Assembly (NCBI GenBank): GCA_013388435.1
Contig: JACAFE010000030.1
Coordinates: forward strand, 65,974-129,973
Length of the DNA: 64,000 nt
From: Nitrospirota bacterium
GTDB lineage: Bacteria > Nitrospirota > Thermodesulfovibrionia > Thermodesulfovibrionales > SM23-35
Direction of reading: 5' to 3'
Of the stretch, positions 20,540 to 64,000 are shown piece after piece. The translations under genes were made by a program, and so were the position numbers. Numbering within the stretch: position 1 is the first letter of the stretch; every line of letters starts with the position of its first letter. Under the pieces are notes generated by a model. It worked only from the letters and a program-made list of their open reading frames with translations. It ran no database searches and was not told the origin of the DNA.

Positions 20540-22084
20540 ATGAACATCTTAGATATCATTAATCAAATATACAATTTTATAAATACTGGTGAATTAATAA
20601 AGGCTGAAAAAGCTTGTCTATCAATGTTAGAAGAATACCCGGATAATCCTGAAATTATGGGCATACTTGGTTTAGTTTATTTTCAGCTTGGGAATGATAA
20701 CCTTGCACAATATTTTTTATCAAAATCATTAATAATTAAACCTGATAATGCCTTCCTGCTACACAATTTGGGAATGACTTTTCTAAAAAAAGGCGATATT
20801 GATAATGCAATTATCTCTTTTCAAAAAGCTTTGCAACTTAACCAGAATCTTGCTTATAGCTGTCACGCTCTCGGCTTATCCTATGACATAAAAGGAGAGT
20901 ATAGTGAAGCTCTAAAGTGGTATGAAAAAGCAATTAAAATTGATTCAAATATAGCGGATGCCCACAATAATATTGGTATTATACTCCAAAAAATGGGTAA
21001 ATATCCTGAAGCAATTTCCAGCTTTAAAAAAGCCCTCGAAATAAACCCTAAATATGCTGAAGTTTACAGCAATATGGGCCTTGCATATAGAGAATATGGT
21101 TTAATTGATAATTCCATAGAATACTATCGAAAAAGTCTTGAGATTAATCCTGAATTAATAGATGTGCACGTTAATTTAGCTCTTTCACTTCTTTTAAATG
21201 GAGATTACCTTACGGGCTGGGAAGAATATGAATGGAGAAAAAAACAACTCCCCAAAATATTTTCTAAACCATTCTGGGAATCTTATGATGATGATGTTTC
21301 TGGCAAAAAAATTCTTATTTACACTGAACAGGGTTTTGGTGATGCTATACAATTTATACGTTATATACCTTTTGTATATGAGCTTGGTGCAAAAATTATT
21401 TTAATTTGTCCAAAGGAATTAAAATCTTTATTTCAAAATATTCAAGGTATATATAATATTTTAACATTTGGCGAAAAAATTCCTGATTTTGATTTGCACT
21501 GTCCCATCCTCTCCCTGCCTTATATTTTTAAAACTACTATTGAAAATATCCCATCCAATATTCCTTATTTATTCCCGGATAAAACAATAATTAATAAATG
21601 GGCAGAAAAGATTCATAGTGATAATAACAATAAACTGAAAATAGGTATAGCATGGTCTGGCAGAAATCATGTACATAATATAAATTTATTTGCACCTTTA
21701 TCTGATATAAATGAAGTAACATTTTTCAGTCTGCAGAAAGGTGAGGCAGCTTCACAGGCTTTAAACCCACCAAACGGCATGAAAATAATTGATTATTCTG
21801 ACCAGATAACCGATTTTTTAGATACTGCCGGAATAATAATGAATCTCGATCTTGTTATCTCAATTGATACTTCTGTTGCTCATTTAGCCGGTGCACTTGG
21901 TAAAAATGTCTGGACATTACTTACTTACGTTCCGGACTGGCGCTGGTTATTAAACAGAAAAGACAGTCCATGGTACCCGACAATGCGTCTTTTCCGTCAA
22001 AAATCTATTGGTAACTGGAATTCTGTTTTTTCCAAAGTTCTGAATGAATTAAATATAATTATCCGAAAAAATTCTTTTGAATAA
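20540..22084 (+). CDS. TPR-repeat protein fused to a GT9-like domain, paralog 3
   Basis: 514 aa. WEEYEWRKK, TEQGFGDAIQFIRY, SIDTSVAHLAGALGKNVW...PDWRWLLNRKDSPWYPTMRLFRQ. It starts 2 nt after the previous stop. Confidence 0.75.
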   Translation: MNILDIINQIYNFINTGELIKAEKACLSMLEEYPDNPEIMGILGLVYFQLGNDNLAQYFLSKSLIIKPDNAFLLHNLGMTFLKKGDIDNAIISFQKALQLNQNLAYSCHALGLSYDIKGEYSEALKWYEKAIKIDSNIADAHNNIGIILQKMGKYPEAISSFKKALEINPKYAEVYSNMGLAYREYGLIDNSIEYYRKSLEINPELIDVHVNLALSLLLNGDYLTGWEEYEWRKKQLPKIFSKPFWESYDDDVSGKKILIYTEQGFGDAIQFIRYIPFVYELGAKIILICPKELKSLFQNIQGIYNILTFGEKIPDFDLHCPILSLPYIFKTTIENIPSNIPYLFPDKTIINKWAEKIHSDNNNKLKIGIAWSGRNHVHNINLFAPLSDINEVTFFSLQKGEAASQALNPPNGMKIIDYSDQITDFLDTAGIIMNLDLVISIDTSVAHLAGALGKNVWTLLTYVPDWRWLLNRKDSPWYPTMRLFRQKSIGNWNSVFSKVLNELNIIIRKNSFE

Positions 22085-48435: not shown

Positions 48436-51400
48436 ATGACTTATAGAACAAATAAAAAAATACCCATCCTCCAAAATCAAATAATGCTTTCTATAGTTCT
48501 CCAGGGACGAAATGATGATTACATGGGGAATTTTGTATGGCGTCTTTCCACAAATATAAATAAACAGGCTAAAGATATTTTTAGTCTTGGCTATGAGAAT
48601 CAAGCTGAAATTATATTGACCGATTGGGGGAGTAAAGTGCCTCTTAAAAATGTATTAATGCTTAATAATGAAGCAAAGTCTCTTCTTCGGATAATAGAGG
48701 TTTTACCTGAAATAGCGAATAAATACAATCTTGATTCTCCTTATTCCTGTGTACATGCAATTAACACAGGAATAAGAAGATCTCTGGGGGAATATATTCT
48801 TTTCTGCGATGGAGACACTTATATTCCTACTGATTCAATGGAAAAGATTTTTAATCTTTTGAATAAAGGAAATTTAAATGGAACTCCTCTTGATAAACTT
48901 CTACTACTTGCATCACGTTATCACATACCTAAAACTTTTCAACAAAAAGAACCTGAAATCGAAGAGATAGATGATTATATCGAAAAAAATAAAAATATTC
49001 TTGCTCATGACAAAATTAATTTAGATAATTTCATGGGTACTGCCACAGCTTACTTAATGTCAAGGAATTTGTGGTTTGAATGCAGAGGCTTTGATGAAAA
49101 TCTCATTTATTGGGGTTGGTTTGATATAGATATTTTTTACCGCATAATTACTAAATATCCTGTTTTTGATTTTGAAGATTTTAAAATTCCATTTTTTCAT
49201 CTTGAACATTATAGTGATTCAAAAAACCGTTCACTTGAAAAAGAGAATCCGAGAAAAGCAAATCCAATGATTTATCCTTCATCATTTTTTAGTAATTCTG
49301 AGAAATGGGGGTTATTTTCTGAGAAATTGTCTGAAGCTTATTTATTTCCGATTATTTTTATACACAAAGGTGATAGTGATTATCTTACATACACCCTTCG
49401 CTGTGCAAAATTGTTTAATCCACAGGCAGAAATAATTTTGCTCGGTGATGAAACAAACGAACATTTCAAATCTCATGGCATTAAACACTATTATTATTCT
49501 GAATATGAAGGTGAAGAATCACATTTATTTGATTCTATATTTAAATATATTGCAGGCAAAGATCATCCTGGCAAACCATGGTGGGTGCATTTTGTTTTTA
49601 AACGCTGGTTTCACATTTATTATTTCACTAAAAAGCACAATATCAGCAGATTCTGGACTTTTGATTCAGACACAATGATTCTAACAGATTTAAGCAAGCA
49701 GGCTTTTAAATTCATTAAATTCGATTGTACCGAGCAATGTAATGGTTCATGCATGAATGGCTTAATAGGAAATTCAGTTATAGTTAAAGGGTATATTGAT
49801 CAAATAATTAATTTATTTCAGGATGAAGAATTTCTATTAAAGCAACAAAAAGAATTTGAGATAAAGACAAAATATGCTTTTACTGAGATGAGAGCATATG
49901 AAATATTTAGACAAAAAGAGGGTATTCAAACAATCAGGCTTAACTCAATAATCAATGATGAAACCTTTGATGATTGTATCTGTCAACAGCATGAAATGGA
50001 AATAGAAGGAGGGGTTAAGAAACTTTATTTCATAAATAATGGAATTTACCTCAAACACATTCCAACACAGAAATTAATTAAAGCTAATAGCCTTAATATG
50101 AGCTGGGTGCCTGTTTCATTTATAAAACAGGTTTATGATATTGTAAGCGAGAAGAAACAAATCCCCTCACAACAATCTTCAGAAAAAATATTTACCCAAA
50201 AATATAATGATTTACCGATACATTTTTTTACAATAGTACTTAATGGAGAACCATTCATCAGGCATCATATAGAAGTATTCAAACAACTGCCTTTTAAATG
50301 GCACTGGCATATTATTGAAGGGGTAGCGGATTTAAAATATGACACAGCATGGAGTTTGAAATACGGTGCAAGAATTACTGATGAAATTCATAAAAATGGT
50401 TTAAGCAATGATGGAACAACAGAATATCTTGATACTCTTATAAGAGAATATTCTGAAAATATAACTATTTACCGTAAAGAAGGCGGTAATTTCTGGGATG
50501 GGAAACTCGAGATGGTGAATGCTCCACTGAAAAACATTAACGAAGAATGTTTACTCTGGCAAATTGATGCTGATGAATTATGGACTGTAGAACAGATATG
50601 CACTGCCCGCACATTATTTATAAATAATCCGGAAAAAACAGCTGCTTATTACTACTGTCATTATTTTGTTGGTGAAAAACTTGTGATTGCTTCACGAAAT
50701 ACTTATGGCAATCATACTGATTATGAATGGTTACGAACATGGCGTTATATTCCAGGCGATTGCTGGATGGCGCATGAACCTCCAAAATTATATAGAAAAA
50801 TTCATAATGAACAATGGATTGATATAGCCTCAATCAATATATTTAAACATAATGAAACAGAGGAACATGGACTGGTTTTCCAGCATTATTCATATGCTAT
50901 AGAAGAGCAGTTATTTTTCAAAGAGAGATATTTCGGTTATTCAGGAGCAGTAAATAAATGGAAACTTCTTCAGTTGCAGACTCACTTTCCAACATTATTA
51001 AGACATTTTTTTAACTGGGTTGAAGACAACGCTCTTGTAGATACAGTTGAAGCATTAAATATAAAACCACTGGCATTAAAAGAAGTTGACGGAAAATGGC
51101 ATTTCAGACAGCATGAACTGACTGAACAAAAAACTGCTTCTGACAAAACAAGGTTGCAAATCCAGAAAACAGAAAAAAAACGATTTAAATCCGGACAAAA
51201 CATCCTCTGGATACGTACAGATGCAATTGGCGATGCTGTCTTATCAGCCTCAATGTTGCCTTTTATTAGGGAGAAGTATCCCGAAGCAAACATAACAGTT
51301 GTTTGCCAGAAGCATCTTGCAGAAATTTACGAGCCTTCTCCTTTTATTGATAGAACAATAGTTTTTGATAAAAAGCTTCTTTTTGATGATAAAAATTATC

Positions 51401-54400
51401 TTAAAGCTATACTCAGAGAGATTCAGGATATTAATGCTGATATCGCCTTTAATTCGGTTTATTCTCCTGAGCCTGTAACAGATATTCTTACTATCGGAAG
51501 TGTAGCAAAAGAAAAGATAGGACTTGAGGGTGATTTGTCAAACATTCCGGCTGATTTTAGGGAAAAAAGCATAAAACAATACACAAAACTTATTAAAAGT
51601 GAAGGAATATTTAAAAATGAACTTGAAAGGCACCGGGATTTTCTTAAAGGTATTGATATTAATTCAACAGATCTAAAACCGGTTATATGGTTAACAGAAG
51701 AAGATGAAAAATATGCTGACAATTTTTTTAAAATACGCAATATCGTTCCTGAAAAAACAATTATTCTTTCCAGTTGTGCTCAGTTTATCATAAAGTACTA
51801 TCAACATTATGGAATTGCTTTATCAAAGATATGCAAAGAAAACGATTTCACTGTAGTCGCAGTAGGTGCTGATCATGAAAGAGAGAGAAATCAATACAAT
51901 CTTAATATGATAGGAGCACGCACAATTAATCTCTGCGGCCAGACTACTATCGGACAGACTGCTGCTCTGGTCAAGAGAAGCCGATTAAGTGTCGGTGCGG
52001 ATTCAGCTATTAATCATATCGCCTGTGCTGTTGGTACTCCTAATGTTGTTGTTCTTGGAGGAGGACATTTTGGCAGATTCTTTCCTTATTCTCCTCTAAC
52101 TACTGTAATTTGTCGTCCAATGCAGTGCTACCAATGCAACTGGTCTTGCAAGTTTCCAAGACCTTATTGCATCCAGAATATTTCTTCAATGAGTTTATCT
52201 GAAGCGATAAGGGAAACATTAAATGGAATTTCAGACAGACCAAGAATATTTTTTGAAACTGAAGCAATAAAAGATATATTTCAAGGAAAGGATTATTGGA
52301 AATGGTTTGGAGAGTATATTAAATTCATGTCAGCAGATTTAATACCTATTGAAAAAAGTTCTGAATCAATGGAAAAAACAACTGCTGCTTCTGGAAAAAT
52401 TGAAACAGGAATCAGTTCAAAAATAAATGAAAATGCAATCCTAAATGGAGGATTTATTGCAACAACATTTAAAGCCGGATTATGCAATAGAATATTTGAA
52501 TGGACAATTATGCGTGAAATAAGCGAAAAATACTGCATGACCATTCTTGTTGATTGGGAAGAAGTAAAGGATGGTTCAATAATATTGCCTGATACAAAAT
52601 ATTTTGATCTGTCAACTGCATCTTCAGACATTGCAAATACATTTATTCCTATAAGAACTGACCTGCCTTATATAAACTCACTTGATGATCTCAAAATTGA
52701 AAAAAACAAAAATTATATTCTTGTATGCGATTGGAATTATAAGAGAAGTCTTACAGATGAAAAGAAACGAATAAATGAAATTCAAATCAGTAAAAAATAT
52801 TCTGAAAAAATTAATGATTTTTTAAAAAAATATGGAGAACAAATTATTATTGGTATTCATGTCCGTAAAGGTGATTATATTCCTTCAGACAAATTTCTCT
52901 TGTCAGACGATGGGAAATTATATCGACTACCTGATTGGTGGTATATCCATATTTCAAAACAGATTTTAAATCAAATGCCAGATGCAAAGTTCTTTCTTGC
53001 TACAGATGCCACTGAAGAAGAGAAAGAAATATTCAAAAAGAATCTTCCAATAATATCAATTTCTGCCGACAAAGATACCCCTCGTCTTGATATACTTGAA
53101 CTTTTTACTCTTTCAAGACTCCCTGCAATTATATGTTCTATCTCAACTTTCAGCATATTTGCCAGAGATTATGGCAGAGAAAAAGTTTCAATCTGGCCTG
53201 AAAAATCTGTTCAGGATATTAGCAATGAGATCGAAAAGCTAAAGAGCATATCTCCGCTTCTTCCTTTTGAAACAAGTTGCACAATATCTTTACCCAGATT
53301 TTCTGTAGTTACACCTTCATATAATCAGGGACAGTATATTGAGAAGACAATTCTTAGTGTTCTCGAGCAGGAGTATCCTGATTTCGAGCACATAATAATT
53401 GACGGAGGCTCTACTGACAATACACTGGATATTCTTAAAAAATATCCTCATTTGAAATGGTTATCAGAAAAAGATGAAGGACAATCGGATGCATTAAATA
53501 AAGGATTCCGAATGGCTGACGGCGACATAATAGCGTGGATTAATTCAGATGATTGGTATGAGCCCGAAGCCTTCGTTTCAGTTGCAGAATGGTTCAGCAA
53601 AAACCCGGATAAAAACATTGTCATGGGTGACTGCAATCTAATAGACCAGAATGGGAAAATATTCTATACTGCTGAAAATTATGAGCGCGGGTTTGAAGAG
53701 ATGAGCCGTTTCTGGATAACAGGCTCTATCCCAACACAGCCGGCAATTTTCTTCAGAAGAAAATTACTTGACGAATATGGCTATCTTGATAAATCACTCA
53801 AATATGCTATGGATTATGACCTCTGGATTAGATTCTCTAAGAATAACCGTTTTTATCATATTGAAAAAATTGTTGCTAATTACCTTTTTCATGAGAATTC
53901 AAAAGGCGGAATCCGTCAGGATTGGAACAAATTCCTTCCAGATTGTAAGAAAGTATTCAAAAAACACGTGCTTTCTCAAAGACCACCAGAAGTGTCTGTT
54001 GTAATAGCCTGTTATAATCAGGCTGTTTTTTTACCAGAAGCAGTTGAAAGCGTTATAAACCAGATATATCAAGATTTCGAAATAATTATCGTAAACGATG
54101 GAAGCACTGATGATACCCAACAAACTGCTGAAATGCTTGCTAAAAAATATCCTGATAATATCATAAAAATAATAAACCAAAAAAATATGGGTGTTTCCTC
54201 AGCAAGAAATGCTGGAATTAAAGCTTCGATGGGGAAATATATTCTGCCTCTGGATGCCGATGATATGCTTCATCCTGATATGCTATTAAGAACAACCGGC
54301 CTCCTGGATACACACCCTGAAATAGGAATAGCATATACCGATGTTCAAAAATTCGGAAAACTGGAAGAATACTGGCAGTCATGGGACTGGGATCTAAACA

Positions 54401-56037
54401 GACTTTACTTTCAGAATATATTGCCATATTGCTCATTGTATCGTAGAGAAGTATGGGAAGCTGCTGGTGGATATAAAGAAAGAATTATTTTTGGTTATGA
54501 AGACTGGGATTTCTGGATAAGTTGTGCAGAAAAAGGCATATATGGCAAACGCATTCCAGAAAATCTATTGATATATAGAACAAAAGAAACAAGCAGAGAT
54601 ACAGAAGCGATTAAAAGTCACGATAAATTATTTGCCCATATTGTTTTAAACCATCCCTCATTATATAAATCAGATACAATTGCATGGGCAAAAGCCTTAA
54701 CAGGCTTCCCGGAAGATTCAAGCCTATTAAAATATGAAAAAGCTACTTCAACTACTATAGGGGAATATATTAAGCCAATGAATATTCTTCTCTGCGTTCA
54801 TAGTTTTCCTACACAAAGAATGGCTGGCACTGAACTCTACGTTTATCATCTGGCAAGGGAACTGATAAATAAAGGACATAAAATCAAGGTGCTTTATCCT
54901 GTATATGAAAATAATTCAGAATACATAAATATAAAAGAAGATAGTTTTGAAGATATTACTCTTGCGCAGATGTATTTGAAGCCTTGTTCAAATATAATCG
55001 AGCATTTCAAAAATGAAAAGGCAAGTAATGCTTTCAATAATTATATATCTTCAGACCCGCCTGATATAGTTCACTTTCATCATTTTCTGGGAATTTCTGT
55101 TTCCCCGCTTAAAGTATGTTATGAACTAAATATCCCTTCAGTCGTTACTTTGCATGATGAATGGATTTTATGCGAACAGCTTCATTATCTTTTACCTGAT
55201 GGCACTTTCTGTAGCGGTCCGGAAACAATTCAGAAATGTATTGAATGCTTTATTGTCCGTCATCCTGAATTTAGATTAACTGATATTAAAGAAAATATAT
55301 TCGAGGCTTTTGCTTTAAGACGCTTGTATTTTATTGACGCTATGAAATGGATTAATACTTTAATTGTCCCTTCGTTATTCTTGAAAAATGAGTTAATAAA
55401 ACATGAATTCCTGCATCCAAATATATTGCATATGCCTCTGGGACTTCATACTTTTACTCCTGTTACTCATAAGCCATCATCTAATTCCATAAGATTGACT
55501 TATCTCGGAAATATAAATTTTACTAAGGGATTTGATGTTCTGATCAAAGCATTTAATTTAATTAATTCAGATAAAGCTGAATTGAATGTTTATGGGAAGG
55601 TGCAGGATGAAATATTCTTCCATGAGGTAATGTCCTTGAATATGAAACCTTTTCATATAAAGATTTATGGACAATATAATCCTTCTGAATTACCTGAAAT
55701 TCTATCGAAAACAGATTTAGCTGTTATTCCTTCACGTTCCGAAAACTACCCTTTTGTTGTGAGAGAATGCCTCCATGCCGGAGTTCCTGTAATTGCATCA
55801 AATGTAGGTGGTATTCCAGAAATTATTAAAAACGGTGAAAATGGCTTATTATTCGAATCAGGTAATTTTCATGACCTTGCGGCAAAACTTACTCTTGTAA
55901 TCATGAATCCAAAGATGCTGATGAATTTCAGAAAAAATATTAAACCCGTAAAAAGCATTGCAGAAGATGTTATAGAATTGGAAAAATTATATAGAGAAAT
56001 TCTTGAGAATAAAAAATTGAAAAATAAGAAAACTTAA
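48436..56037 (+). CDS. Giant multi-module glycosyltransferase (2,533 aa, about 8 GT-type modules)
   Basis: One uninterrupted frame. Approximate module positions: GT2-like 48480-49250 (FCDGDTY); unknown 49340-50150; GT-A-like 50220-51000; GT9-like 51200-52250 (ILWIRTDAIGDAV); fucosyltransferase-like 52440-53230 (IGIHVRKGDY, FLATD); GT2 53298-53990 (VVTPSYNQ...IIIDGGSTD); GT2 53990-54700 (VVIACYNQ...IVNDGSTDD); GT4/GT-B 54778-56037 (PSRSENYPFVVRECLHAGVPVIASNVGGIPE). Confidence 0.85.
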   Translation: MTYRTNKKIPILQNQIMLSIVLQGRNDDYMGNFVWRLSTNINKQAKDIFSLGYENQAEIILTDWGSKVPLKNVLMLNNEAKSLLRIIEVLPEIANKYNLDSPYSCVHAINTGIRRSLGEYILFCDGDTYIPTDSMEKIFNLLNKGNLNGTPLDKLLLLASRYHIPKTFQQKEPEIEEIDDYIEKNKNILAHDKINLDNFMGTATAYLMSRNLWFECRGFDENLIYWGWFDIDIFYRIITKYPVFDFEDFKIPFFHLEHYSDSKNRSLEKENPRKANPMIYPSSFFSNSEKWGLFSEKLSEAYLFPIIFIHKGDSDYLTYTLRCAKLFNPQAEIILLGDETNEHFKSHGIKHYYYSEYEGEESHLFDSIFKYIAGKDHPGKPWWVHFVFKRWFHIYYFTKKHNISRFWTFDSDTMILTDLSKQAFKFIKFDCTEQCNGSCMNGLIGNSVIVKGYIDQIINLFQDEEFLLKQQKEFEIKTKYAFTEMRAYEIFRQKEGIQTIRLNSIINDETFDDCICQQHEMEIEGGVKKLYFINNGIYLKHIPTQKLIKANSLNMSWVPVSFIKQVYDIVSEKKQIPSQQSSEKIFTQKYNDLPIHFFTIVLNGEPFIRHHIEVFKQLPFKWHWHIIEGVADLKYDTAWSLKYGARITDEIHKNGLSNDGTTEYLDTLIREYSENITIYRKEGGNFWDGKLEMVNAPLKNINEECLLWQIDADELWTVEQICTARTLFINNPEKTAAYYYCHYFVGEKLVIASRNTYGNHTDYEWLRTWRYIPGDCWMAHEPPKLYRKIHNEQWIDIASINIFKHNETEEHGLVFQHYSYAIEEQLFFKERYFGYSGAVNKWKLLQLQTHFPTLLRHFFNWVEDNALVDTVEALNIKPLALKEVDGKWHFRQHELTEQKTASDKTRLQIQKTEKKRFKSGQNILWIRTDAIGDAVLSASMLPFIREKYPEANITVVCQKHLAEIYEPSPFIDRTIVFDKKLLFDDKNYLKAILREIQDINADIAFNSVYSPEPVTDILTIGSVAKEKIGLEGDLSNIPADFREKSIKQYTKLIKSEGIFKNELERHRDFLKGIDINSTDLKPVIWLTEEDEKYADNFFKIRNIVPEKTIILSSCAQFIIKYYQHYGIALSKICKENDFTVVAVGADHERERNQYNLNMIGARTINLCGQTTIGQTAALVKRSRLSVGADSAINHIACAVGTPNVVVLGGGHFGRFFPYSPLTTVICRPMQCYQCNWSCKFPRPYCIQNISSMSLSEAIRETLNGISDRPRIFFETEAIKDIFQGKDYWKWFGEYIKFMSADLIPIEKSSESMEKTTAASGKIETGISSKINENAILNGGFIATTFKAGLCNRIFEWTIMREISEKYCMTILVDWEEVKDGSIILPDTKYFDLSTASSDIANTFIPIRTDLPYINSLDDLKIEKNKNYILVCDWNYKRSLTDEKKRINEIQISKKYSEKINDFLKKYGEQIIIGIHVRKGDYIPSDKFLLSDDGKLYRLPDWWYIHISKQILNQMPDAKFFLATDATEEEKEIFKKNLPIISISADKDTPRLDILELFTLSRLPAIICSISTFSIFARDYGREKVSIWPEKSVQDISNEIEKLKSISPLLPFETSCTISLPRFSVVTPSYNQGQYIEKTILSVLEQEYPDFEHIIIDGGSTDNTLDILKKYPHLKWLSEKDEGQSDALNKGFRMADGDIIAWINSDDWYEPEAFVSVAEWFSKNPDKNIVMGDCNLIDQNGKIFYTAENYERGFEEMSRFWITGSIPTQPAIFFRRKLLDEYGYLDKSLKYAMDYDLWIRFSKNNRFYHIEKIVANYLFHENSKGGIRQDWNKFLPDCKKVFKKHVLSQRPPEVSVVIACYNQAVFLPEAVESVINQIYQDFEIIIVNDGSTDDTQQTAEMLAKKYPDNIIKIINQKNMGVSSARNAGIKASMGKYILPLDADDMLHPDMLLRTTGLLDTHPEIGIAYTDVQKFGKLEEYWQSWDWDLNRLYFQNILPYCSLYRREVWEAAGGYKERIIFGYEDWDFWISCAEKGIYGKRIPENLLIYRTKETSRDTEAIKSHDKLFAHIVLNHPSLYKSDTIAWAKALTGFPEDSSLLKYEKATSTTIGEYIKPMNILLCVHSFPTQRMAGTELYVYHLARELINKGHKIKVLYPVYENNSEYINIKEDSFEDITLAQMYLKPCSNIIEHFKNEKASNAFNNYISSDPPDIVHFHHFLGISVSPLKVCYELNIPSVVTLHDEWILCEQLHYLLPDGTFCSGPETIQKCIECFIVRHPEFRLTDIKENIFEAFALRRLYFIDAMKWINTLIVPSLFLKNELIKHEFLHPNILHMPLGLHTFTPVTHKPSSNSIRLTYLGNINFTKGFDVLIKAFNLINSDKAELNVYGKVQDEIFFHEVMSLNMKPFHIKIYGQYNPSELPEILSKTDLAVIPSRSENYPFVVRECLHAGVPVIASNVGGIPEIIKNGENGLLFESGNFHDLAAKLTLVIMNPKMLMNFRKNIKPVKSIAEDVIELEKLYREILENKKLKNKKT

Positions 56038-56642: not shown

Positions 56643-57251
56643 TTAGTCAAAAGCCATCTTTGTCTTCCAGACTTTCCAGACATTACCGACAAGATCCGGA
56701 CCAGGCTTTAATGTCATCTTACCAGGCTTCCACCCTGAAGGAGTTGCTTCTGTCCCTTTGCTTTTCCTCACAAGCTGAAATGCCTGTATCTGCCTGAGAG
56801 ATTCACTGACATTTCTTCCAACCGGCGGGGTTAATACCTCAAATCCCTGAATAATTCCATCAGGGTCAATAATAAACCTTCCCCTTGTTTCTACTCCTGA
56901 ATTATCATCATATACGCCATAGACTGTTCCCACCTTTCCGCCAGTATCTGACAGCATAGGGAAAGGCACTCCACCTTTTACCATTTTTGACAGCTCATGG
57001 TCATTCCACATTTTGTGAACGAATACGCTGTCAATGCTCATAGAAAAAATTTCAACGCCGAGTTTCTTGAACTCCGGATACTTTTCAGCAACTGCTGAAA
57101 GCTCAGTGGCTCAGACAAAGGTAAAATCCCCTGGATAGAAACATAAAAGAATCCATTTTCCAAAATATTCTGATAATTGCAGATTAACGAATTTTCCCTG
57201 ATAATATGCCGGTGCTGTAAAATCCGGCGCTTTTCTTCCAATAAGTATCAT
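56643..57251 (-). CDS. Peroxiredoxin (AhpC/Prx1-type) with in-frame TGA at the peroxidatic position; predicted selenocysteine enzyme
   Basis: Tracked ORFs 57111-57365 and 56643-57041 are in the same frame, separated only by TGA (57113-57111). The joined reading is ...LLCFYPGDFTFV-U-ATELSAVAEKYPEFKKLGVEIFSMSIDSVFVHKMW..., and canonical enzymes have FVCPTE here. The likely start is ATG 57251 (MILIGRKAPDF), preceded by AAGGAGG. The product is 202 aa with U at residue 47. Confidence 0.8.
57081..57101 (-). promoter_or_regulatory. Candidate bacterial SECIS hairpin
   Basis: The mRNA reads UGA-GCCACUGAG-CUUUCAGC-AGUU-GCUGAAA(A)G. The stem is 8-9 bp and starts 9 nt after UGA. The 4-nt apical loop has G at its second position. 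Confidence 0.6.
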
Positions 57252-57375
57252 CTTCTTTTCCTCCTTCTTTATAAATTCTTCATCCTGTTTTGCCTTTTCT
57301 TTTCCCTTTTCTTCAACAACTCCTCCGGTCGGCCGTGCACAGCCGGGTTTAAACTCTTTTGGCATACAATACTCC

Positions 57376-57420
57376 TTTCATGTTATTTTTTCGAAGAGTT
57401 ATATTGTTTCATGTTATTTT
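57376..57420. repeat. 14-nt perfect direct repeat TTTCATGTTATTTT x2 between cydB and the peroxiredoxin gene
   Basis: Copies at 57376-57389 and 57407-57420 (31 nt start to start), in the 5' region of the peroxiredoxin gene. Confidence 0.5.
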
Positions 57421-57439: not shown

Positions 57440-58468
57440 TTAATAGTTTTCCGTATCTTTCACTATATCAGAAGTCGATAATTTATGTCTGAATATTCTA
57501 TATATCCAGATTTGATACGCAATAACTATTGGAACGAAAATCATTGCAACAATAGTCATAATTTTAAGCGTATATGGGCTGGACGATGAATTGAAGATAG
57601 TCAGGCTGTATTGAGCATCAATATTCGAAGGAATAAGATTCGGATATAAACCAACAATGCCTGTGAATGTGACCATAACAATTAAAATACAAGATGAATA
57701 AAACGCGGCGACAAACCATTTTTTACCTGCAAATATCTTTATGCTCAATAGAGATGTAACTGCAAGAATTGGTATTATGAACCATAATGGCATAATGATG
57801 AAATTATTGTAAAGGTCAGTCGCAAAAGATGTATAAATTAGGAAACAAACAGCAACAATTGCAAGAACATACCACATCTTGCCTGCTAACTGTTCGGAAC
57901 GAGTCTTAACATCTCCTTTAGTTTTAATGCTCAGCCATAAAGAACCATGCACAAGAAATAGCAGCACAAAAAAAATGCCGGTCAGCAAGCCGTATGGGTT
58001 GAGTAACGTGAATAAGGTGCCATGATACTCTTGCGCATCCATTGGCAGTCCCTTGAAGATATTCCCAAAAGCAACGCCAAATAGTAAAGAAGGAATAAAA
58101 CTCCCTCCAAATATTGCGAGATCCCATACTTTTTTCCATACGGCAGACTCTCCTTTTCCTCTGAATTCAATGGCAACCCCTCTCAAAATGAGTGCAAACA
58201 GAATAATAAGGAGAGCTGAATATAGATAGCTAAACATTAAAGCATATGTCGTAGGGAAAGCAGCAAAGGTTGCCCCACCAGCAGTAATGAGCCATACCTC
58301 ATTGCCATCCCAGACAGGCCCTATTGTTTTTATAGCTAAGCTTTTTTCTGCTTCATTTTTTCCAATAAAACCATGAAGCATACCAACACCGAAATCAAAA
58401 CCATCAAGCATGAAATAAACAGCCCAAAGAACGCCCCACAATATAAACCAAATTATCTGGAATTCCAT
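57440..58468 (-). CDS. cydB: Cytochrome bd oxidase subunit II
   Basis: N-terminal ...WAVYFMLDGFDFGVG motif and a multi-TM pattern. The likely start is ATG 58468 (MEFQIIW), with AGGAGG 8 nt upstream and 1 nt after the cydA stop. Confidence 0.9.
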   Translation of the reverse strand: MEFQIIWFILWGVLWAVYFMLDGFDFGVGMLHGFIGKNEAEKSLAIKTIGPVWDGNEVWLITAGGATFAAFPTTYALMFSYLYSALLIILFALILRGVAIEFRGKGESAVWKKVWDLAIFGGSFIPSLLFGVAFGNIFKGLPMDAQEYHGTLFTLLNPYGLLTGIFFVLLFLVHGSLWLSIKTKGDVKTRSEQLAGKMWYVLAIVAVCFLIYTSFATDLYNNFIIMPLWFIIPILAVTSLLSIKIFAGKKWFVAAFYSSCILIVMVTFTGIVGLYPNLIPSNIDAQYSLTIFNSSSSPYTLKIMTIVAMIFVPIVIAYQIWIYRIFRHKLSTSDIVKDTENY

Positions 58469-58469
58469 T

Positions 58470-59822
58470 TTATACCTCCTGCGCAACTGAAGATGATTTC
58501 ATCTCAGAAATTATTTCCTCAGGCCCTTTCTTTGCATATTTTGTTAAAAGATAGACATCAATCAATGCAAGAAAACCGTATAAAAGAGTAAATCCCACAA
58601 ATGATATCAGCACCTGTGTTGTATTGATTGATTTTGAAACTGCATCAGCAGTTTTTAGAAGACTATAGACGATCCAGGGTTGTCTTCCGACTTCTGCAAC
58701 TATCCAACCGATCTGGACAGCAATATATGGCAGGATGAGAGAGAATAACATTATATTAAGAAAGAAAGGCTTTGATTCCATGTTTCCCTTTCTCGATAAA
58801 ACAACAGATAGAAATGATAGAAAAATAAAGAGAAAGCCGAGTCCCACCATCAGCCGAAAACTTAAGAAGGTTAGCGTCACAGGCGGTCGATCTTCTTTGG
58901 GATATGCCTTAAGCCCTTTCACTTCAGCATTACTGTCATGGAATGCCAAATAGCTCAGCATTTTTGGCACTTTAAATGCTTCCATAGCATTACGCTCATT
59001 TTCCGGGTCTGGCACAACAATTAATGGATATGAAGCAGCTTGTTATGTCTCCCATACCGATTCCATAGCAGCAAATTTCGTTGGCTGTGCTTTTGCAACC
59101 TCAACCCCGTGAAAATCACCTGTCATCAACACAAATATTGCACTGACAAGAGCAAACCGTGATGCAATTTTAAATGACGTATTAAAAAATTGAAGGTTAT
59201 TCTTCTTGAGGAGATGATATGCTGAAACTCCCATAACAAAAAAGGCTGCAAGGACATAACTGGACACGATCGTATGGAAAAATTTTGTCCATCCATAAGG
59301 GTTAGTCACTAAAGCCATAAAATCAACCATCTCTGCCCTATTGTTCCTCAGTACATAACCAACTGGTTTCTGCATCCAGCCATTTGCAAGCAGTATCCAT
59401 AATGCCGATAGATTTGTTGCAAAAGCTACAATCCAGATCGAAAGCGCATGCAATTTCTTGGAGACTTTATTCCAGCCGAATATCCAGAGACCGATGAAAG
59501 ATGATTCAAGAAAAAATGCAACTGTGGCTTCTATGGCAAGAGGCGCTCCAAATATATCGCCAACATATTTAGAATACTCTGCCCAGTTCATGCCAAACTG
59601 AAATTCCAATGTGATGCCGGTCACGACTCCGAGCGCAAAATTTATAAGGAACAACTTTCCCCAGAACTTTGTCATCTTCAGGTACATTTCATTATCAGTA
59701 AGAACATACCGTGTTTCCATATAAGCCACAAGAAGTGAAAGGCCGAGTGTGAGCGGAACAAAAATAAAATGAAAGGCAGCTGTTGAAGCGAACTGCAATC
59801 TGCTTAATGTCAAAACATCCAT
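58470..59822 (-). pseudogene. cydA: Cytochrome bd oxidase subunit I, interrupted by a single in-frame TAA in the Q-loop region
   Basis: Tracked ORFs 59043-59822 and 58470-59015 are in the same frame. The continuous reading is ...KFAAMESVWET-TAA(59045-59043)-QAASYPLIVVPDPENERNAMEAFKVPKMLSYL.... The total of 449 sense codons is a normal CydA length. CydA motifs are present on both sides (FHFIFVPLTLG; GWIVAEVGRQPW). Confidence 0.85.
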
Positions 59823-59893: not shown

Positions 59894-60295
59894 TTATTTC
59901 AATTTTATAAGCTTCTGAAAAGTCACTTTTTTGAGATGCTGCTCAACCTTTTGTCTCAATTCTACCCATACGGGATGAACCGTACAGGTCTTGCTAAATC
60001 TACAAATGTCTTTGTTTATTGCACATCTGTTCATACCTGCAGGCCCCTGTATAGCCTCAATAATGTCAAGAAGACTTATCTGTCTCGGATTTTTTGCAAG
60101 CTGAAAACCTCCCTTAATCCCTCTGGAAGATTTCACGATACCTGCTTTTGTAAGACGCTGAAGGATTTTGGCAAGAAAACTCTTTGGTATGTCCATTATA
60201 ACTGCAATATCATCGACCACGACAACACGCTCCCTCATTCTTGATAGGTATAGAACACATCTTATTGCGTAATCTGTCTGTCTTGTAATCTGCAT
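59894..60295 (-). CDS. Rrf2 family transcriptional regulator (Fe-S cluster type)
   Basis: 133 aa. N-terminal wHTH (TDYAIRCVLYL...) and three clustered Cys (C-x6-C-x5-C: CAINKDICRFSKTC). It lies directly upstream of cydA on the same strand. Confidence 0.85.
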   Translation of the reverse strand: MQITRQTDYAIRCVLYLSRMRERVVVVDDIAVIMDIPKSFLAKILQRLTKAGIVKSSRGIKGGFQLAKNPRQISLLDIIEAIQGPAGMNRCAINKDICRFSKTCTVHPVWVELRQKVEQHLKKVTFQKLIKLK

Positions 60296-60824
60296 AAACA
60301 GGACTTAATTTGTCTTTATTTAATTAAGACAATTATTATCCTATTTTATATCTTTTGTCAAGTGGTTTTTGTAGTCAGGGGTCACACTTTGATAAAAACA
60401 AAGTGGGCTTGTATAATCTCTTTCACCCAAAGACACAAAAATGAAGATATAGCAAGGTGTTTGCGAATAGAATATAAAGGTGATTTTTATCATATAACAG
60501 CATAAGGTAATAATCGAAAAGCTATATTTTCAACCTATTCGTTTCTCGGACTTATGTGGATGATATGATGGCTCCGCTATCAGAAACACTGCGAACCATC
60601 CCTATAATTTTACCAAATTTCATTCATCAGTCAAAACAAAGAAACTTAAAGAAATAACAGCATACTTGCAGGCTCGGACAATTTCATCGTCCTCGCACTG
60701 CTCCCTTTACTTCCTGCCACACTTTCAGCGTGGCAGTTTCCCTCTGCCAATTTCATCGCCAGAGTTTATTTTATTTACTCCCACCCACCACCCTATAAGG
60801 ATTTTATTTTTATAAAAATTCCTC

Positions 60825-60853
60825 TTGACAATCATTGTATTTTTTTGTATATT
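60825..60853 (+). promoter_or_regulatory. Sigma70-type promoter candidate for the HTH / R-M operon
   Basis: TTGACA (60825-60830), 17-nt spacer, TATATT (60848-60853). Confidence 0.5.
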
Positions 60854-60862
60854 ATAGTCAAA

Positions 60863-61020
60863 TTTTATGAAAGATTATGTTTTAATAAAAGGATTGCCTT
60901 TATGGAAGAAAAAGAAATAATGACTGTTAAGCAAGTTGCAGAATATTTACAGATGGATGAACACACCATCTATAAACTTGCTCGTTCAGGACTTATCCCT
61001 TCCCTAAAAATCGCTGGTCA
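60863..61020 (+). repeat. Left arm of the inverted repeat bracketing the R-M block
   Basis: 158 nt aligned by hand to the reverse complement of 63843-64000 with 9 mismatches. It covers the 5' UTR and codons 1-40 of the HTH gene. Confidence 0.9.
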
Positions 61021-61129
61021 GTGGCGGTTTAAAAAAGATGTGATTGATAAATGGATAAGTGAGGAATCGTTAGAAAGGAGCGCAAAATTCTTTTCAATAC
61101 AACAGAAAGGAAAGAAAAAAATAAGATGA
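60902..61129 (+). CDS. Excisionase-family (MerR-like) helix-turn-helix DNA-binding protein
   Basis: MTVKQVAEYLQMDEHTIYKLARSGLIPSLKIAGQWRFKKDVIDKWI is the classic excisionase-type HTH. I prefer ATG 60902 because the tracked start 60845 lies inside the promoter. The stop overlaps the next start (ATGA). Confidence 0.8.
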   Translation: MEEKEIMTVKQVAEYLQMDEHTIYKLARSGLIPSLKIAGQWRFKKDVIDKWISEESLERSAKFFSIQQKGKKKIR

Positions 61130-61986
61130 GAAATATCTATAAACATTTTGAAACATTAATTTGTGCAGAAGAATCAACGACCTATGGTGAAGAAAGAATA
61201 GAACCTTTTTTCTATGACCCATTCAAGAAAATAAAGCTGTATAATGGAGATGCTCTCGAACTATTAAAAAAAATACCTGATAAATGTATTGACCTTATAT
61301 TTGCAGACCCTCCTTACTTTGGAAATCAATCTGGTTTGATTATAAAAAGGAATGATGGACATGCCAATACCTTTGATACTCAAAAAGCAAAATGGGCTTA
61401 CTCAAAATCACTATCTTATCAATTTGAATTTCATTATGCTTGGCTAAAAGAAGCTCAAAGAATACTTAAAGACGGTTCAACTATATGGGTTACTGGTACA
61501 TATCACAGTATTGGAGTTATTAATGTCGTGCTTCAGGATTTAGGTTTTAAAATCCTTAATGATATAATTTTGCATAAAAGGAATGCTCCACCTAATTTTA
61601 AAGGTTCATGTTTTAGAGCTGTAACAGAAACAATGTTATGGGCAAAGAAGAATAATTATGGTAAAACTAAATTTAATTATTGGCAGATGAAGAGGCTTAA
61701 TGGTAATACCCAGATGAAGAATTTATGGGAATATTGGGCAGAAAAAAATCCATTTAGACACCCAGCGACAAAGCAACAAATAATTTTAGAGTATGTGATC
61801 TTAGCCGGGAGTAACGAAGGTGATTTAATACTTGACCCTTTTGCTGGTTCTGGAACGACAGGGTTTGTTGCACAAGGCCTCGGTAGAAAATGTATTATGA
61901 TAGAAATAGACCCAAATTATTGCCAGCTAATTAAAGACAGAATAGAAGGGAAATATGGTGAATTCAGAAGAAAGACAAAAACTTAA
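61126..61986 (+). CDS. DNA methyltransferase, beta-class (DPPY before FxGxG), probably N6-adenine
   Basis: 286 aa. Motif IV IFADPPY near the N-terminus and motif I DPFAGSGTTG near the C-terminus. Confidence 0.85.
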   Translation: MRNIYKHFETLICAEESTTYGEERIEPFFYDPFKKIKLYNGDALELLKKIPDKCIDLIFADPPYFGNQSGLIIKRNDGHANTFDTQKAKWAYSKSLSYQFEFHYAWLKEAQRILKDGSTIWVTGTYHSIGVINVVLQDLGFKILNDIILHKRNAPPNFKGSCFRAVTETMLWAKKNNYGKTKFNYWQMKRLNGNTQMKNLWEYWAEKNPFRHPATKQQIILEYVILAGSNEGDLILDPFAGSGTTGFVAQGLGRKCIMIEIDPNYCQLIKDRIEGKYGEFRRKTKT

Positions 61987-62764
61987 AGAGAAATTTAGAA
62001 GCCAGCTTCTAAAGTATGTTGATCAATTTAATGCCGCCGTTTCAACTGAAGATGGCGATTGGATTGTAAAAGGGTTTATAGATATTGCAAAAAATATCTA
62101 TACAATTTCAGTTGATACGAAGGTAGTATCAAAAATTATGGAACTACTTTTGTTCCCTAAAATATGTCAATTTGCAGAGGAAAATAAGTATAAGATGGTT
62201 TTATGTAAAGAACAAAATTTTTATCCTGATATTACATTTGTTGATAGCATGAATAACAAATTTGCTGTAGATGTAAAAAGCACATATAGAAAGAATGGAA
62301 AAGAAGTAAATGGAATGACATTAGGAGCATTCACAGGATATTTTAGAGATAGAAAAAGCAAGAAAAATATAACATTCCCCTATGATGAATATATAGGTCA
62401 CTTCGTATTGGGTATTATCTATTCGAGAACTGACAAACACCTTGATGAAAGAAAAGTATACCGCCTTGAAGATCTTAAAAACATCACCTCTGTAGTAAAA
62501 GATTTTGTCTTTTTTGTTCAGGAAAAATATAAAATTGCTACCGACAGGCCGGGGAGTGGAAATACAAAAAATATCGGTTCTGTAGTAAAGATAGATGAAC
62601 TAATAAATGGCAAAGGGCCATTTGCTAAACTTGGGGAAGATGTTTTTGATGATTACTGGATGTTTTACCTTACCAAAGATATGGCAAAAGCAGTGGAACT
62701 TAAAGATTCACCTTATAGAAATCTCAGAGAATATATGCAATACAAAAAAATGAGGATGAAATAA
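61955..62764 (+). CDS. Type II restriction endonuclease, EcoRV-like
   Basis: 269 aa. Collinear resemblance to my recollection of R.EcoRV: DTKVVSKIMELL (EcoRV DTKVLSTIFELF), NFYPDITF (HYPDFTL), FAVDVKSTY (IAIDIKTTY), FPYDEYIGH (YPFDQYIAH), GSGNTKNIGS (GSGNTTNIGS), GKGPF...DDYW (GKGIF...LDYW). Confidence 0.8.
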   Translation: MVNSEERQKLKEKFRSQLLKYVDQFNAAVSTEDGDWIVKGFIDIAKNIYTISVDTKVVSKIMELLLFPKICQFAEENKYKMVLCKEQNFYPDITFVDSMNNKFAVDVKSTYRKNGKEVNGMTLGAFTGYFRDRKSKKNITFPYDEYIGHFVLGIIYSRTDKHLDERKVYRLEDLKNITSVVKDFVFFVQEKYKIATDRPGSGNTKNIGSVVKIDELINGKGPFAKLGEDVFDDYWMFYLTKDMAKAVELKDSPYRNLREYMQYKKMRMK

Positions 62765-63832
62765 ATGTCACAAATTTTTAAAAAACAATTAACTTTACTT
62801 GAAAATCCCCCTGTATTCCCTTCAACACGATTCCAGGGAAGTAAGCTCAAAATAGTGGATTGGATATGGGATGAAATAAAAGATTTGAAATTCCATACTG
62901 CTCTTGACGCTTTCGGAGGGACTGGAAGTGTTGCTTATATGCTTAAGGAAAAAGGTAAGAAAGTAACATATAACGACATATTGAAATTTAACTACTATAT
63001 AGGGCTTGCATTGATAGAGAACAATGAAATGACACTGACGGATGAAGATGTAGAGTTTCTTCTTACGAGACATAATGGTATTGCCTATCCTACATTTATT
63101 GCTGACACCTTTAAGGAAATCTATTACACGGATGACGAAAATAGATGGATTGATATGGTAGTAACAAACATCAAATTAATGAGTGATAAATATAAACAAG
63201 CAATGGCATTTTTTTCACTCTTTCAAGCATGTATTATCAAACGACCCTTTAACCTATTTCACAGAAAGAACCTATATTTAAGATTTGCCGATGTAAAAAG
63301 AGATTTTGGGAATAAAGCAACTTGGGATACTTCTTTTGAGACACATTTTAGAAAATTTGTTGATGAGGCTAATAATGCAGTTTTCTCTAATGGTCAAAAG
63401 AATAATGCATTAAATCTTGATGTTTTTGATATAGAGGGGGAATTTGATCTTGTTTACATTGACACGCCTTATATTTCAAAAAAAGGAGTGGGAGTAGATT
63501 ATCTTAGCTTTTATCATTTCCTTGAGGGGCTTGTTAATTATGACGAGTGGGCTGATATGATCGATTACAGAACTAAAAATCGGAAGTTGAAATCAAAACC
63601 ATCTGTATGGATTGACAGAAATAAAATATACTCTGCTTTTGATAGATTATTTAAGAAATTTCAAGATAGCATTCTTGTTGTTTCATATCGTTCGGATGGT
63701 ATTCCTTCTATAGATGAACTTGTGGATGTACTTAGAAAATATAAACAAACTATTCACCAGATAAAAAGAAAAGACTATAAGTACGCGTTAAGTACAAATG
63801 AGTTAGAGGAAGTAATTTTAATAGGGGAATAA
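62765..63832 (+). CDS. DNA adenine methyltransferase, alpha-class (Dam/D12 family)
   Basis: 355 aa. N-terminal FQGSKLKIVDWI (Dam Y.GgK-type), motif I DAFGGTGSV and motif IV VYIDTPY. Confidence 0.85.
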   Translation: MSQIFKKQLTLLENPPVFPSTRFQGSKLKIVDWIWDEIKDLKFHTALDAFGGTGSVAYMLKEKGKKVTYNDILKFNYYIGLALIENNEMTLTDEDVEFLLTRHNGIAYPTFIADTFKEIYYTDDENRWIDMVVTNIKLMSDKYKQAMAFFSLFQACIIKRPFNLFHRKNLYLRFADVKRDFGNKATWDTSFETHFRKFVDEANNAVFSNGQKNNALNLDVFDIEGEFDLVYIDTPYISKKGVGVDYLSFYHFLEGLVNYDEWADMIDYRTKNRKLKSKPSVWIDRNKIYSAFDRLFKKFQDSILVVSYRSDGIPSIDELVDVLRKYKQTIHQIKRKDYKYALSTNELEEVILIGE

Positions 63833-63838
63833 CATTAG

Positions 63839-64000
63839 CTATTGACCAGCGATTTTTAGGGAAGGGATAAGTCCTGTGCGGGCAAGTTTATAAATGGTAT
63901 GTTCGTCCATCTGTAAATATTCTGCCACTTGCTTAACAGTCATTATTTCTTTTTCTTCCATAAAGGCAATCCTTTTCTTAAAACATAATTTTTCATAAAA
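63839..64000 (-). repeat. Right arm of the inverted repeat; contains a truncated second copy of the HTH gene (40 codons then TAG)
   Basis: The minus strand reads ATG (63961-63959) MEEKEIMTVKQVAEYLQMDEHTIYKLARTGLIPSLKIAGQ, then TAG (63841-63839). Similarity to the left copy ends exactly after ...GCTGGTCA. The repeat runs to the window edge, so its full length is unknown. Confidence 0.85.

Follow-up and report, generated by a model that had tools for sequence, protein, structure and literature searches.

On the minus strand of the 64-kb stretch of DNA analysed here (the window), a peroxiredoxin gene carries a TGA triplet at the codon where the peroxidatic cysteine is expected. The question is whether this TGA ends a broken gene, specifies a standard amino acid or is read as selenocysteine (Sec).

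The reading frame, its family and its neighbours

We translated positions 57251-56643 of the minus strand and obtained a single frame, in which the lone internal stop is the TGA at 57113-57111, set between FYPGDFTFV and ATELSAVAEK. The list of open reading frames cuts prxU into 57365-57111 (84 aa) and 57041-56643 (132 aa); as a preliminary description of the locus had stated, both pieces lie in the same frame and the TGA is their sole interruption. That description began the gene at 57251, which is an internal start, and the conserved reading frame begins at 57365, 38 codons further 5′. By tblastn, residues 1-240 are covered in most of the best 80 related loci, and a motif resembling a Shine-Dalgarno (SD) sequence stands ahead of the first start in 75 of 81 loci. 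The gene is identical or nearly identical in four public assemblies (L081-L084). The features of the frame are the following.

56643-57365, minus strand: prxU long reading frame, 240 codons including the predicted Sec85, with stop codon TAA at 56645-56643
57372-57376, minus strand: Shine-Dalgarno sequence AGGAG, 6 nt 5′ of the first ATG (57365-57363)
57111-57134, minus strand: active-site motif P78-G-D-F-T82-F-V-U85 (PxxxTxxU), with the putative Sec codon TGA at 57113-57111
57141-57143, minus strand: Cys75 codon TGT in LLCFYPGD, the second invariant Cys, 10 residues ahead of the Sec position

We scored the protein, with Cys put in place of Sec in the query, against NF040737, the curated NCBI equivalog model for PrxU. 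The long form reaches 421.9 bits over profile positions 2-233 of 233 and a 202-residue short form, described below, reaches 397.6 bits (cut-off 270), while the next family, AhpC TIGR03137, gives 189 bits and falls below its cut-off of 272. The Pfam AhpC-TSA domain matches at 1.5e-36, a C-terminal region similar to 1-cysPrx_C is present, and Prx1/AhpC chains in the PDB match at up to 1.3e-49. An AF2 model of the Cys homologue P0051 (pLDDT 88) groups in Foldseek with AhpC and Prx2 at target-normalised TM scores of 0.92-0.95.

The protein shares the AhpC/Prx1 fold with typical 2-Cys peroxiredoxins such as Salmonella AhpC (1n8j/4ma9) and human Prx2 (7kiz), at about 36-42% identity, together with the PxxxTxx(C/U) pocket and the conserved Arg; across the 99 long forms that were aligned, P78, T82, R161 and Cys75 never vary. 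It differs from them in its predicted Sec at the peroxidatic position, where theirs is Cys, in the extra invariant Cys75 ahead of the active-site loop and in an N-terminal Cys extension that has no counterpart in the solved structures, with which about 190 of the 240 residues align.

The PrxU of Eubacterium acidaminophilum reportedly has its Sec at U47, and the purified enzyme is said to be 203 aa long, about the size of the 202-residue short form here. Both proteins have a TxxU peroxidatic site and are missing the C-terminal resolving Cys, and the present gene differs by the 38 residues added at its N-terminus, which include an invariant Cys. The hosts differ as well: the E. acidaminophilum enzyme belongs to a clostridial amino-acid fermenter, whereas the host here is uncultured, with a Nitrospirota metagenome-assembled genome (MAG) as its top match (90% identity). 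The Sec-peroxiredoxin of E. acidaminophilum is a characterised one (Sohling et al. 2001, cited in PMC13188914). Sec-peroxiredoxins belong to the more frequent selenoprotein families of bacteria (PMC1088965, PMC1794560), and the earlier remark that they are rare does not hold.

Upstream of prxU on the same strand lies a run of genes in the order rrf2-cydA-cydB-prxU.

57440-58486, minus strand: cydB, cytochrome bd subunit II, directly upstream and 74 nt from the prxU start
58470-59822, minus strand: cydA, cytochrome bd subunit I, broken in the window by a TAA at 59045-59043
59894-60295, minus strand: Rrf2-family regulator (Pfam Rrf2, 1.2e-37), at the head of the run

The matching cydB gene in L081-L084 carries the Pfam domain Cyt_bd_oxida_II. 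In the same four assemblies the cydA codon at 59045-59043 is CAA and a 450-aa product is called, so that the TAA is found in the window only; if this nonsense codon is real and the transcript is shared, it could reduce prxU expression. A site resembling a sigma-70 promoter at 60361-60332 has 11 of 12 consensus matches. The scan for promoters and terminators gave counts that were not above those of shuffled controls, and a promoter upstream of rrf2 is therefore a weak hint only. From this arrangement, prxU would share a transcript with rrf2-cydAB, and the genes would together serve in defence against oxygen and peroxide. Across 75 loci, the upstream neighbours are heterogeneous and include Fur (L001), KatG (twice), catalase, rubrerythrin (twice) and, in 4 of the 75, a pyridine-nucleotide disulfide oxidoreductase with rhodanese. 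Judged by these upstream neighbours, prxU has no fixed operon partner.

The TGA codon and the hairpin downstream of it

The codon in question is TGA in all of the 80 best relatives, each from a different species, and these include members of Nitrospirota, Spirochaetota, Desulfobacterota, Syntrophales, Fibrobacterota, Caldithrix and others. Four independent assemblies that are 99.3-99.9% identical to the window (L081-L084) keep the TGA, and three of the four show other SNPs inside prxU; L085 also has TGA at this codon. Among the matches listed, 98 clusters of database homologues have W (90), C (7) or G (1) in the same column. Seven true Cys forms entered the alignment, and the five that were checked in DNA have TGC or TGT. 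The alignment with Cys orthologues, which the preliminary description had proposed, thereby confirms the Cys/Sec column, and its placement of the TGA exactly at the peroxidatic Cys position agrees with the 80 of 80 relatives with TGA and the minority with TGC or TGT.

Nine nucleotides past the TGA, the sequence GCCACUGAG reads C-UUUCAGC-AGUU-GCUGAAA-AG and can form a hairpin.

57083-57100, minus strand: candidate SECIS hairpin, with 5′ arm UUUCAGC (57100-57094), loop AGUU (57093-57090) and 3′ arm GCUGAAA (57089-57083)

We compared this hairpin across 81 sequences. In the 7-bp stem, 99.1% of cells are paired, as against 88.6% in shuffled alignments and 43-69% with slid partners, and not one of 500 shuffles equalled the real alignment in pairing or in covariation score. 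Since the 81 sequences share ancestry, the cell counts overstate the number of independent events. Pair 27-42 occurs as UA (50), CG (24), AU (4) and UG (1), and pair 30-39 as GC (46), AU (23), UA (8) and CG (2), both with zero broken cells. The loop ends 33-36 (N1-N2) are never unpaired, AU occurring 42 times, GC 36 times and GU once, and the loop bases G34 and U35 are invariant. The covariation of two stem pairs and of the loop-closing pair falls at third codon positions, where the changes are synonymous. In L026 and L029, Ala is changed to Ser and to Gly, respectively, yet pairing is preserved. RNAalifold predicts the inner six of the seven pairs (27-32 with 37-42).

As a single sequence, the hairpin is not significantly stable (z = -0.61), and the structural case consequently rests on the comparison across sequences. 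A search of Rfam, over the whole window at gathering thresholds and over 56950-57200 in E-value mode, returned no relevant family and one chance scaRNA match. A lower helix in the minimum free energy (MFE) fold, in which the UGA pairs with a GUUCA lying 38 nt downstream, was rejected because only 73.9% of its cells are paired and it has zero double changes.

As quoted in PMC13188914, the bSECIS model specifies an apical loop of 3-9 nt, an upper stem of 4-16 bp and an MFE of at most -7.5 kcal/mol, with a G in loop position 1 or 2, usually followed by G or U, and flanking bases N1 and N2 that are able to pair. The prxU hairpin lies within all the bSECIS constraints, with its 4-nt loop, 7-bp stem, A-G-U-U loop sequence, 17-nt spacing from UGA to loop (alignment columns 16-32; window positions 57110-57094) and, over 23 nt, an MFE of -8.2 kcal/mol. 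An energy of -7.5 kcal/mol or lower is found in 79 of the 81 Sec forms. The corresponding energies in five Cys forms are -3.4, -12.2, -6.1, -6.8 and -0.2 kcal/mol; the hairpin is degraded in four of these five genes, and the remaining one (L087) retains a perfect stem. By this comparison, the hairpin is a SECIS element maintained by covariation at synonymous sites and a predicted recruiter of SelB. Covariation and the model constraints thus uphold the SECIS-like hairpin that had been noticed nine nt past the TGA, with a G in a 4-nt loop. Its stem had been given as 8-9 bp, of which 7 bp are supported; the eighth and ninth pairs (C57101-G57081, with a bulged A) occur in the window only and are not conserved.

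The hairpin resembles known bSECIS elements in lying inside the coding sequence right after the UGA, in its short upper stem and small loop, and in the G followed by U between complementary bases of that loop. Many relatives read GGUC, which is the loop of the SECIS element of E. coli fdhF. The GU dinucleotide is at nucleotides 23-24 of fdhF, counted from the U of UGA, and at 22-23 here. As points of difference, the prxU stem has no bulged U, and covariation lends no support to a lower helix containing the UGA. The sequence of the prxU hairpin is set largely by the codons of (I/L/V)-S-A-V-A-E-K, and no Rfam family covers it.

Taken with the family assignment, these results make it very probable that 57365-56643 encodes PrxU, with Sec at the peroxidatic residue and a UGA that is decoded by way of the downstream SECIS hairpin. 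The identification of a Sec-peroxiredoxin with PrxU as its precedent is borne out by NF040737, by the conservation of the TGA, by the Cys homologues and by the covarying hairpin.

There is a small chance that the gene is a relic, in which the UGA and hairpin are intact while working Sec machinery has been lost or is absent, and the gene is not productively expressed. Within the 64-kb window, a tRNA search found no tRNA of any kind, tRNA-Sec included, and Pfam scans of 38 ORFs found no SelA, SelB or SelD domain, as a relic would allow. Against this stand clear purifying selection in the species group, with the TGA and the frame kept both in the four assemblies and in the closest other species (the Nitrospirota MAG at 90% identity), and the entry of Nitrospirae among the Sec-using lineages in PMC13188914. 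We infer that the host genome has selA, selB, selC and selD and that the organism decodes Sec.

Less probable still is a true stop, whether by nonsense mutation, in a pseudogene or through an error of sequencing, that would leave a dead peroxiredoxin or fragments of 84 and 132 residues. Gene callers do split prxU in two, here and in the four public assemblies, and the nonsense codon in the adjoining cydA shows that this sequence is not free of such damage. That TAA is confined to the window, whereas the prxU TGA sits exactly at the catalytic codon in 80 of 80 related loci and in the four independent assemblies, a covarying hairpin follows it, and the frame beyond it is open and strongly conserved (48 invariant columns in alignment A1).

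We give equally little weight to a UGA read as a standard amino acid, be it Trp or Gly under code 4 or 25 or Cys or Trp by near-cognate read-through. The W in 90 and G in 1 of the 98 database clusters, and the low G+C content of the window (about 33%), speak for such decoding, but the W and G letters are artefacts of gene callers (P0007 has W in its database translation and TGA in its DNA), the relatives come from phyla with the standard code, and at a peroxidatic residue, where the true homologues have Cys, only Cys or Sec is functional. A genome using code 4 or 25 would show many in-frame TGAs, and it is unlikely here because the 64 kb show one. In a six-frame scan of the window, prxU was the sole credible gene split by TGA; three other stop-flanked TGA frames, at 41515, 47123 and 58023, were set aside because they lie within or opposite annotated genes. 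TGA also terminates 4 of the 41 ORFs in the window. One of the two ordinary stops cited in the preliminary description, at 10253-10255, is among these four, and the other, at 61127-61129, is merely the TGA in an ATGA that opens a methylase gene.

In the favoured reading, that of a Sec codon, the UGA at codon 85 would be decoded as Sec because of the downstream mRNA hairpin: the 7-bp stem and its apical N-G-U-N′ loop would bring SelB, loaded with Sec-tRNA(Sec), to the ribosome.

The N-terminal extension and the resolving thiol

The residues added by the upstream start contain a conserved motif and precede a second start with its own ribosome binding site.

57309-57344, minus strand: N-terminal motif G8-C9-A-R-P-T-G-G-V-V-E-E, with Cys9 codon TGT at 57341-57339
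57260-57266, minus strand: internal Shine-Dalgarno sequence AAGGAGG, 8 nt 5′ of the internal ATG
57249-57251, minus strand: internal start codon ATG (Met39), which opens the 202-residue short form

The GCARPTGG motif is present in 81 of 81 loci, and Cys9 is invariant in the 99 long forms. The extension of 38 residues with its invariant Cys is found in the window, in all of the best 80 relatives and in 98 of 120 database clusters among the matches listed; short homologues without it also exist. Within the motif, the first two codon positions hardly vary, third positions have an entropy of 1.6-1.96 bits at four- and six-fold-degenerate residues and about 1.0-1.1 bits at the two-fold-degenerate Cys and Glu, and Arg is encoded by both AGR and CGN codons. 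This variable third position, together with the mixed Arg codons, indicates that selection acts on the protein.

The internal start is ATG in 77, GTG in 3 and ATT in 1 of the 81 loci, and AGGAG or GGAGG lies 5-11 nt (mostly 8) before it in 79 of the 81, as the full AAGGAGG in 48. The Glu codons in the stretch that contains the internal SD sequence are GAG 100 times and GAA 22 times, compared to 412 and 572 times in the rest of the gene. The pattern suggests two isoforms, of 240 and 202 residues, made from two conserved in-frame starts that each have an SD sequence of their own.

The usual partner of the peroxidatic residue is missing. Where solved 2-Cys peroxiredoxins have EVCPAGW, the window has EATPSGW, in keeping with the ATPSGW that had been reported for the resolving-Cys motif, and among 99 sequences the column of the resolving Cys, which normally belongs to a VCP motif, holds T 86 times, A 11 times and C twice. 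We therefore do not file this PrxU as a typical 2-Cys peroxiredoxin. The enzyme had been called a one-selenol type. It does lack a canonical C-terminal resolving Cys, but with Cys9 and Cys75 both invariant the type is not established. From its conservation, either the tethered Cys9 or Cys75 may resolve in place of the missing C-terminal Cys.

In the proposed catalytic cycle, a selenolate in the PxxxTxxU...R pocket would attack the peroxide and become a selenenic acid, which a thiol would then reduce; the enzyme is proposed to be thioredoxin-dependent. We infer both the activity of PrxU here and its reductant. A more specific scheme is tentative, and we consider it rather unlikely as a whole: a large PrxU clade would make two isoforms, and a GCARPTGGPVGE Cys on a flexible tether of constant length, about 30 residues, would resolve Sec85 as a selenenylsulfide. 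If it is true, an N-terminal resolving residue would be a placement not known for peroxiredoxins of the AhpC/Prx1 type, and combining both kinds of subunit could serve to tune the enzyme.

Significance

The gene is a genuine selenoprotein gene of the already known PrxU family, a correct but ordinary case. In itself it adds little, given that Sec-peroxiredoxins were already recognised in 2001, are frequent in anaerobes and can be annotated with a curated model. In the searchable literature, PrxU appears only in citations of the 2001 paper and in genome notes, and we found there no description of the extension and internal start. The N-terminal Cys extension and the second start are the sole parts that may be new for peroxiredoxin mechanism.

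The locus also flags an annotation problem, with prxU split into two ORFs in the window and in four public assemblies, and with the Sec codon mistranslated as Trp or Gly in 91 of 98 related database clusters among the matches listed. The comparison of 81 sequences provides a clean test case of a SECIS element that is upheld by synonymous covariation and mostly lost when Sec is replaced by Cys (4 of 5). As for the host, probably a Nitrospirota relative, the presence of prxU makes selenium use likely, and the adjoining cytochrome bd oxidase is in keeping with a unit for defence against oxygen and peroxide in an anaerobic or microaerophilic organism.

Reading frame and family of prxU

The minus strand of the window from 57251 to 56643 translates in a single frame, whose lone internal stop is a TGA (57113-57111) preceded by FYPGDFTFV and followed by ATELSAVAEK. 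In the mechanical ORF list the gene appears as two entries, 57365-57111 (84 aa) and 57041-56643 (132 aa), which share this frame. In alignments to solved Prx1/AhpC-type peroxiredoxins, the TGA occupies the column of the peroxidatic Cys (FTFVCPTE), and the resolving-Cys motif EVCPAGW reads EATPSGW. Translation and alignments therefore bear out the preliminary description on the reading frame, the catalytic position of the TGA and the altered resolving motif (ATPSGW), and its identification of a Sec peroxiredoxin gene is well supported.

For protein matching, the stop was replaced by Cys. The resulting protein matched Pfam AhpC-TSA (1.5e-36) and 1-cysPrx_C, as well as solved Prx1/AhpC-type peroxiredoxins (up to 1.3e-49). 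The NCBI curated PrxU equivalog model, NF040737 (cut-off 270 bits), scored the 202-residue form at 397.6 bits, covering profile positions 35-233 only, and the protein read from an upstream in-frame ATG (57365) at 421.9 bits, covering positions 2-233; the model for AhpC proper gave 189 bits, short of its 272-bit cut-off. Peroxiredoxins with Sec are established as a selenoprotein family; the first member to be characterised was that of Eubacterium acidaminophilum (Sohling et al. 2001, as cited in PMC13188914), and a 2006 genome survey counted 12 genes (PMC1794560). The window gene is a member of this known, curated family.

TGA terminates 4 of the 41 ORFs in the window and no further credible in-frame TGA occurs in its whole 64 kb, indicating that recoding is specific to the prxU context, as first proposed.

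Conservation of the TGA and its downstream hairpin

Scanning one genome per GTDB species yielded at least 596 loci encoding relatives. We used the 80 best, which come from Nitrospirota, Spirochaetota, Desulfobacterota, Syntrophales, Fibrobacterota, Caldithrix and others, the top one being from Nitrospirota (90% identity). The same codon is TGA in all 80. Four further public metagenome assemblies hold the prxU locus at 99.3-99.9% identity; TGA is present in all four, three of which carry other SNPs inside prxU, so that the concern that the codon might be TGC or TGT is answered at the assembly level. The genes selA, selB, selD and that for tRNA-Sec were not found within the 64-kb window. Nitrospirae are listed among Sec-using lineages in PMC13188914, and this listing, together with the conservation pattern, suggests that the host would decode Sec.

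We aligned 81 sequences (window and 80 relatives), gap-free, over a span that begins 12 nt 5' of the TGA and ends 57 nt 3' of it, with the stem defined as columns 26-32 paired with 37-43. Standard pairs occupy 99.1% of stem cells, compared to 88.6% in shuffles and 43-69% when partners were slid (the sequences are related, and these counts are cells, not independent events); 0 of 500 shuffles attained the observed pairing or covariation score. Pair 30-39, formed by third positions of Ser and Ala codons, is GC in 46 sequences, AU in 23, UA in 8 and CG in 2, and pair 27-42 is UA in 50, CG in 24, AU in 4 and UG in 1, with neither ever broken. Four pair types at one position require several independent double changes, despite the kinship of the sequences. 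Two relatives change the residue (L026 and L029; Ala to Ser, Ala to Gly), yet keep the pairing intact. RNAalifold predicts the inner six of the seven pairs (27-32 with 37-42). The apex is N-G-U-N', in which G and U are invariant and the loop ends (33-36) are AU in 42, GC in 36 and GU in 1.

The bSECIS model, as given in PMC13188914, specifies a loop of 3-9 nt, a stem of 4-16 bp, a G in the first two loop positions, a spacing of 16-37 nt and an MFE of at most -7.5 kcal/mol. The window hairpin lies within all of these limits (4 nt loop A-G-U-U, 7 bp, 17 nt spacing, -8.2 kcal/mol), which, with the pairing across the alignment, upholds its earlier description as SECIS-like; 79 of the 81 Sec forms reach -7.5 kcal/mol or better. 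Folded as a single sequence, the window hairpin was not significantly stable, and no Rfam family matched it. A lower helix including the UGA was unsupported.

As a control, five Cys-form genes form 4, 7, 5, 6 and 3 of the 7 pairs, with MFEs, in the same order, of -3.4, -12.2, -6.1, -6.8 and -0.2 kcal/mol. The hairpin structure is kept where the UGA is kept. One Cys form (L087, protein cluster P0032, codon TGC) has the full 7-bp stem at -12.2 kcal/mol with the loop GAUC, not N-G-U-N'; its stem may reflect a recent Sec-to-Cys change.

N-terminal extension and probable second start

The start initially assigned, 57251, is too short: from the upstream ATG, a conserved motif, G-C-A-R-P-T-G-G-P-V-G-E, is encoded about 8 codons into the gene in 81 of 81 loci. 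Its codon positions 1 and 2 are almost invariant; entropy at position 3 is 1.6-1.96 bits for residues with four- or six-fold degenerate codons and about 1.0-1.1 bits for the two-fold Cys and Glu; and Arg is encoded by AGR as well as CGN codons. Together, these features indicate selection on the protein. Cys9 of the motif is invariant in 99 long forms, as is Cys75 in LLCFYPGD. Between Cys9 and Met39 lies a linker of variable sequence and constant length, spanning 29-31 residues in 74 of the 81 loci. In the AF2 model of a Cys homologue (P0051; pLDDT 88), residues 11-16 form a strand (pLDDT about 80) and the linker is disordered; Foldseek aligns only the ~190-residue Prx domain to solved structures. 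Either the tethered Cys9 or Cys75 could serve as the resolving thiol, and the proposed one-selenol enzyme is therefore unproven.

The internal start codon is ATG in 77 loci, GTG in 3 and ATT in 1, and AGGAG or GGAGG lies 5-11 nt (mostly 8) upstream of it in 79 of 81, with the full AAGGAGG in 48. In the window (57249-57266, minus strand, covering both elements), a canonical AAGGAGG stands 8 nt 5' of the in-frame ATG within the prxU ORF, and an SD-like motif is also found in the five Cys forms. Glu codons in this stretch are GAG 100 : GAA 22, against 412 : 572 in the remainder of the gene, and the residue following Lys-Glu is V, E, G, A or D, all with codons beginning with G; thus, selection acts on the nucleotides at the internal SD. 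An SD also precedes the first start in 75 of the 81 loci. The conserved internal AAGGAGG and ATG point to a second translation start, which would yield a 202-residue isoform beside the 240-residue one. Genuine short forms without the extension are present in the PrxU family.

Gene neighbourhood and public annotation of PrxU

Features near prxU in the window
59894-60295, minus strand: rrf2, heading the order rrf2, cydA, cydB, prxU
58470-59822, minus strand: cydA
61126-61986: N4/N6 DNA methylase
61955-62764: EcoRV-family endonuclease
62765-63832: D12/Dam-class methylase

The cydB-prxU gap is 74 nt, and the four genes are probably co-transcribed; the order is consistent with a unit for defence against oxygen and peroxide. 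The nearest other species (L001, a Nitrospirota MAG with a 90% identical PrxU) has a Fur-family gene (3419-3862), possibly PerR-type, directly upstream of prxU in place of rrf2-cydAB. The upstream neighbour is not conserved over 75 loci.

The window's cydA contains an in-frame TAA (59043-59045, between VWET and QAAS), located 5' of cydB and prxU, which share its strand. The codon is CAA (Gln) in the four near-identical assemblies, where an intact 450-aa CydA is called, and the TAA reflects a nonsense mutation particular to this strain or else an error of assembly. Window 60576-64000, which holds the two methylases and the endonuclease listed above, does not align to these assemblies, in which rrf2 is followed by secG and tpiA; it looks like a strain-variable restriction-modification island. 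Glycosylation genes occupy 48436-56037 and 11305-22084; one product is a 2533-residue protein with many glycosyltransferase domains (GT2, GT9, others), and TPR-repeat and glycosyltransferase genes, one GT41-like, form a cluster of their own. For a single 64-kb window, this is an unusually large set of glycosylation genes.

Among the protein-database matches listed, the Sec column of 98 long-form homologues holds W in 90, C in 7 and G in 1, and the five Cys forms checked in DNA have TGC or TGT, in agreement with the anticipated Cys/Sec column. One cluster with W in the database (P0007) has TGA in its DNA. The W and G are artefacts of gene calling under genetic codes 4 and 25. Other assemblies have the gene cut in two. 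Such Trp and Gly calls and split genes amount to a systematic mis-annotation of the PrxU selenoprotein in the public protein collection.
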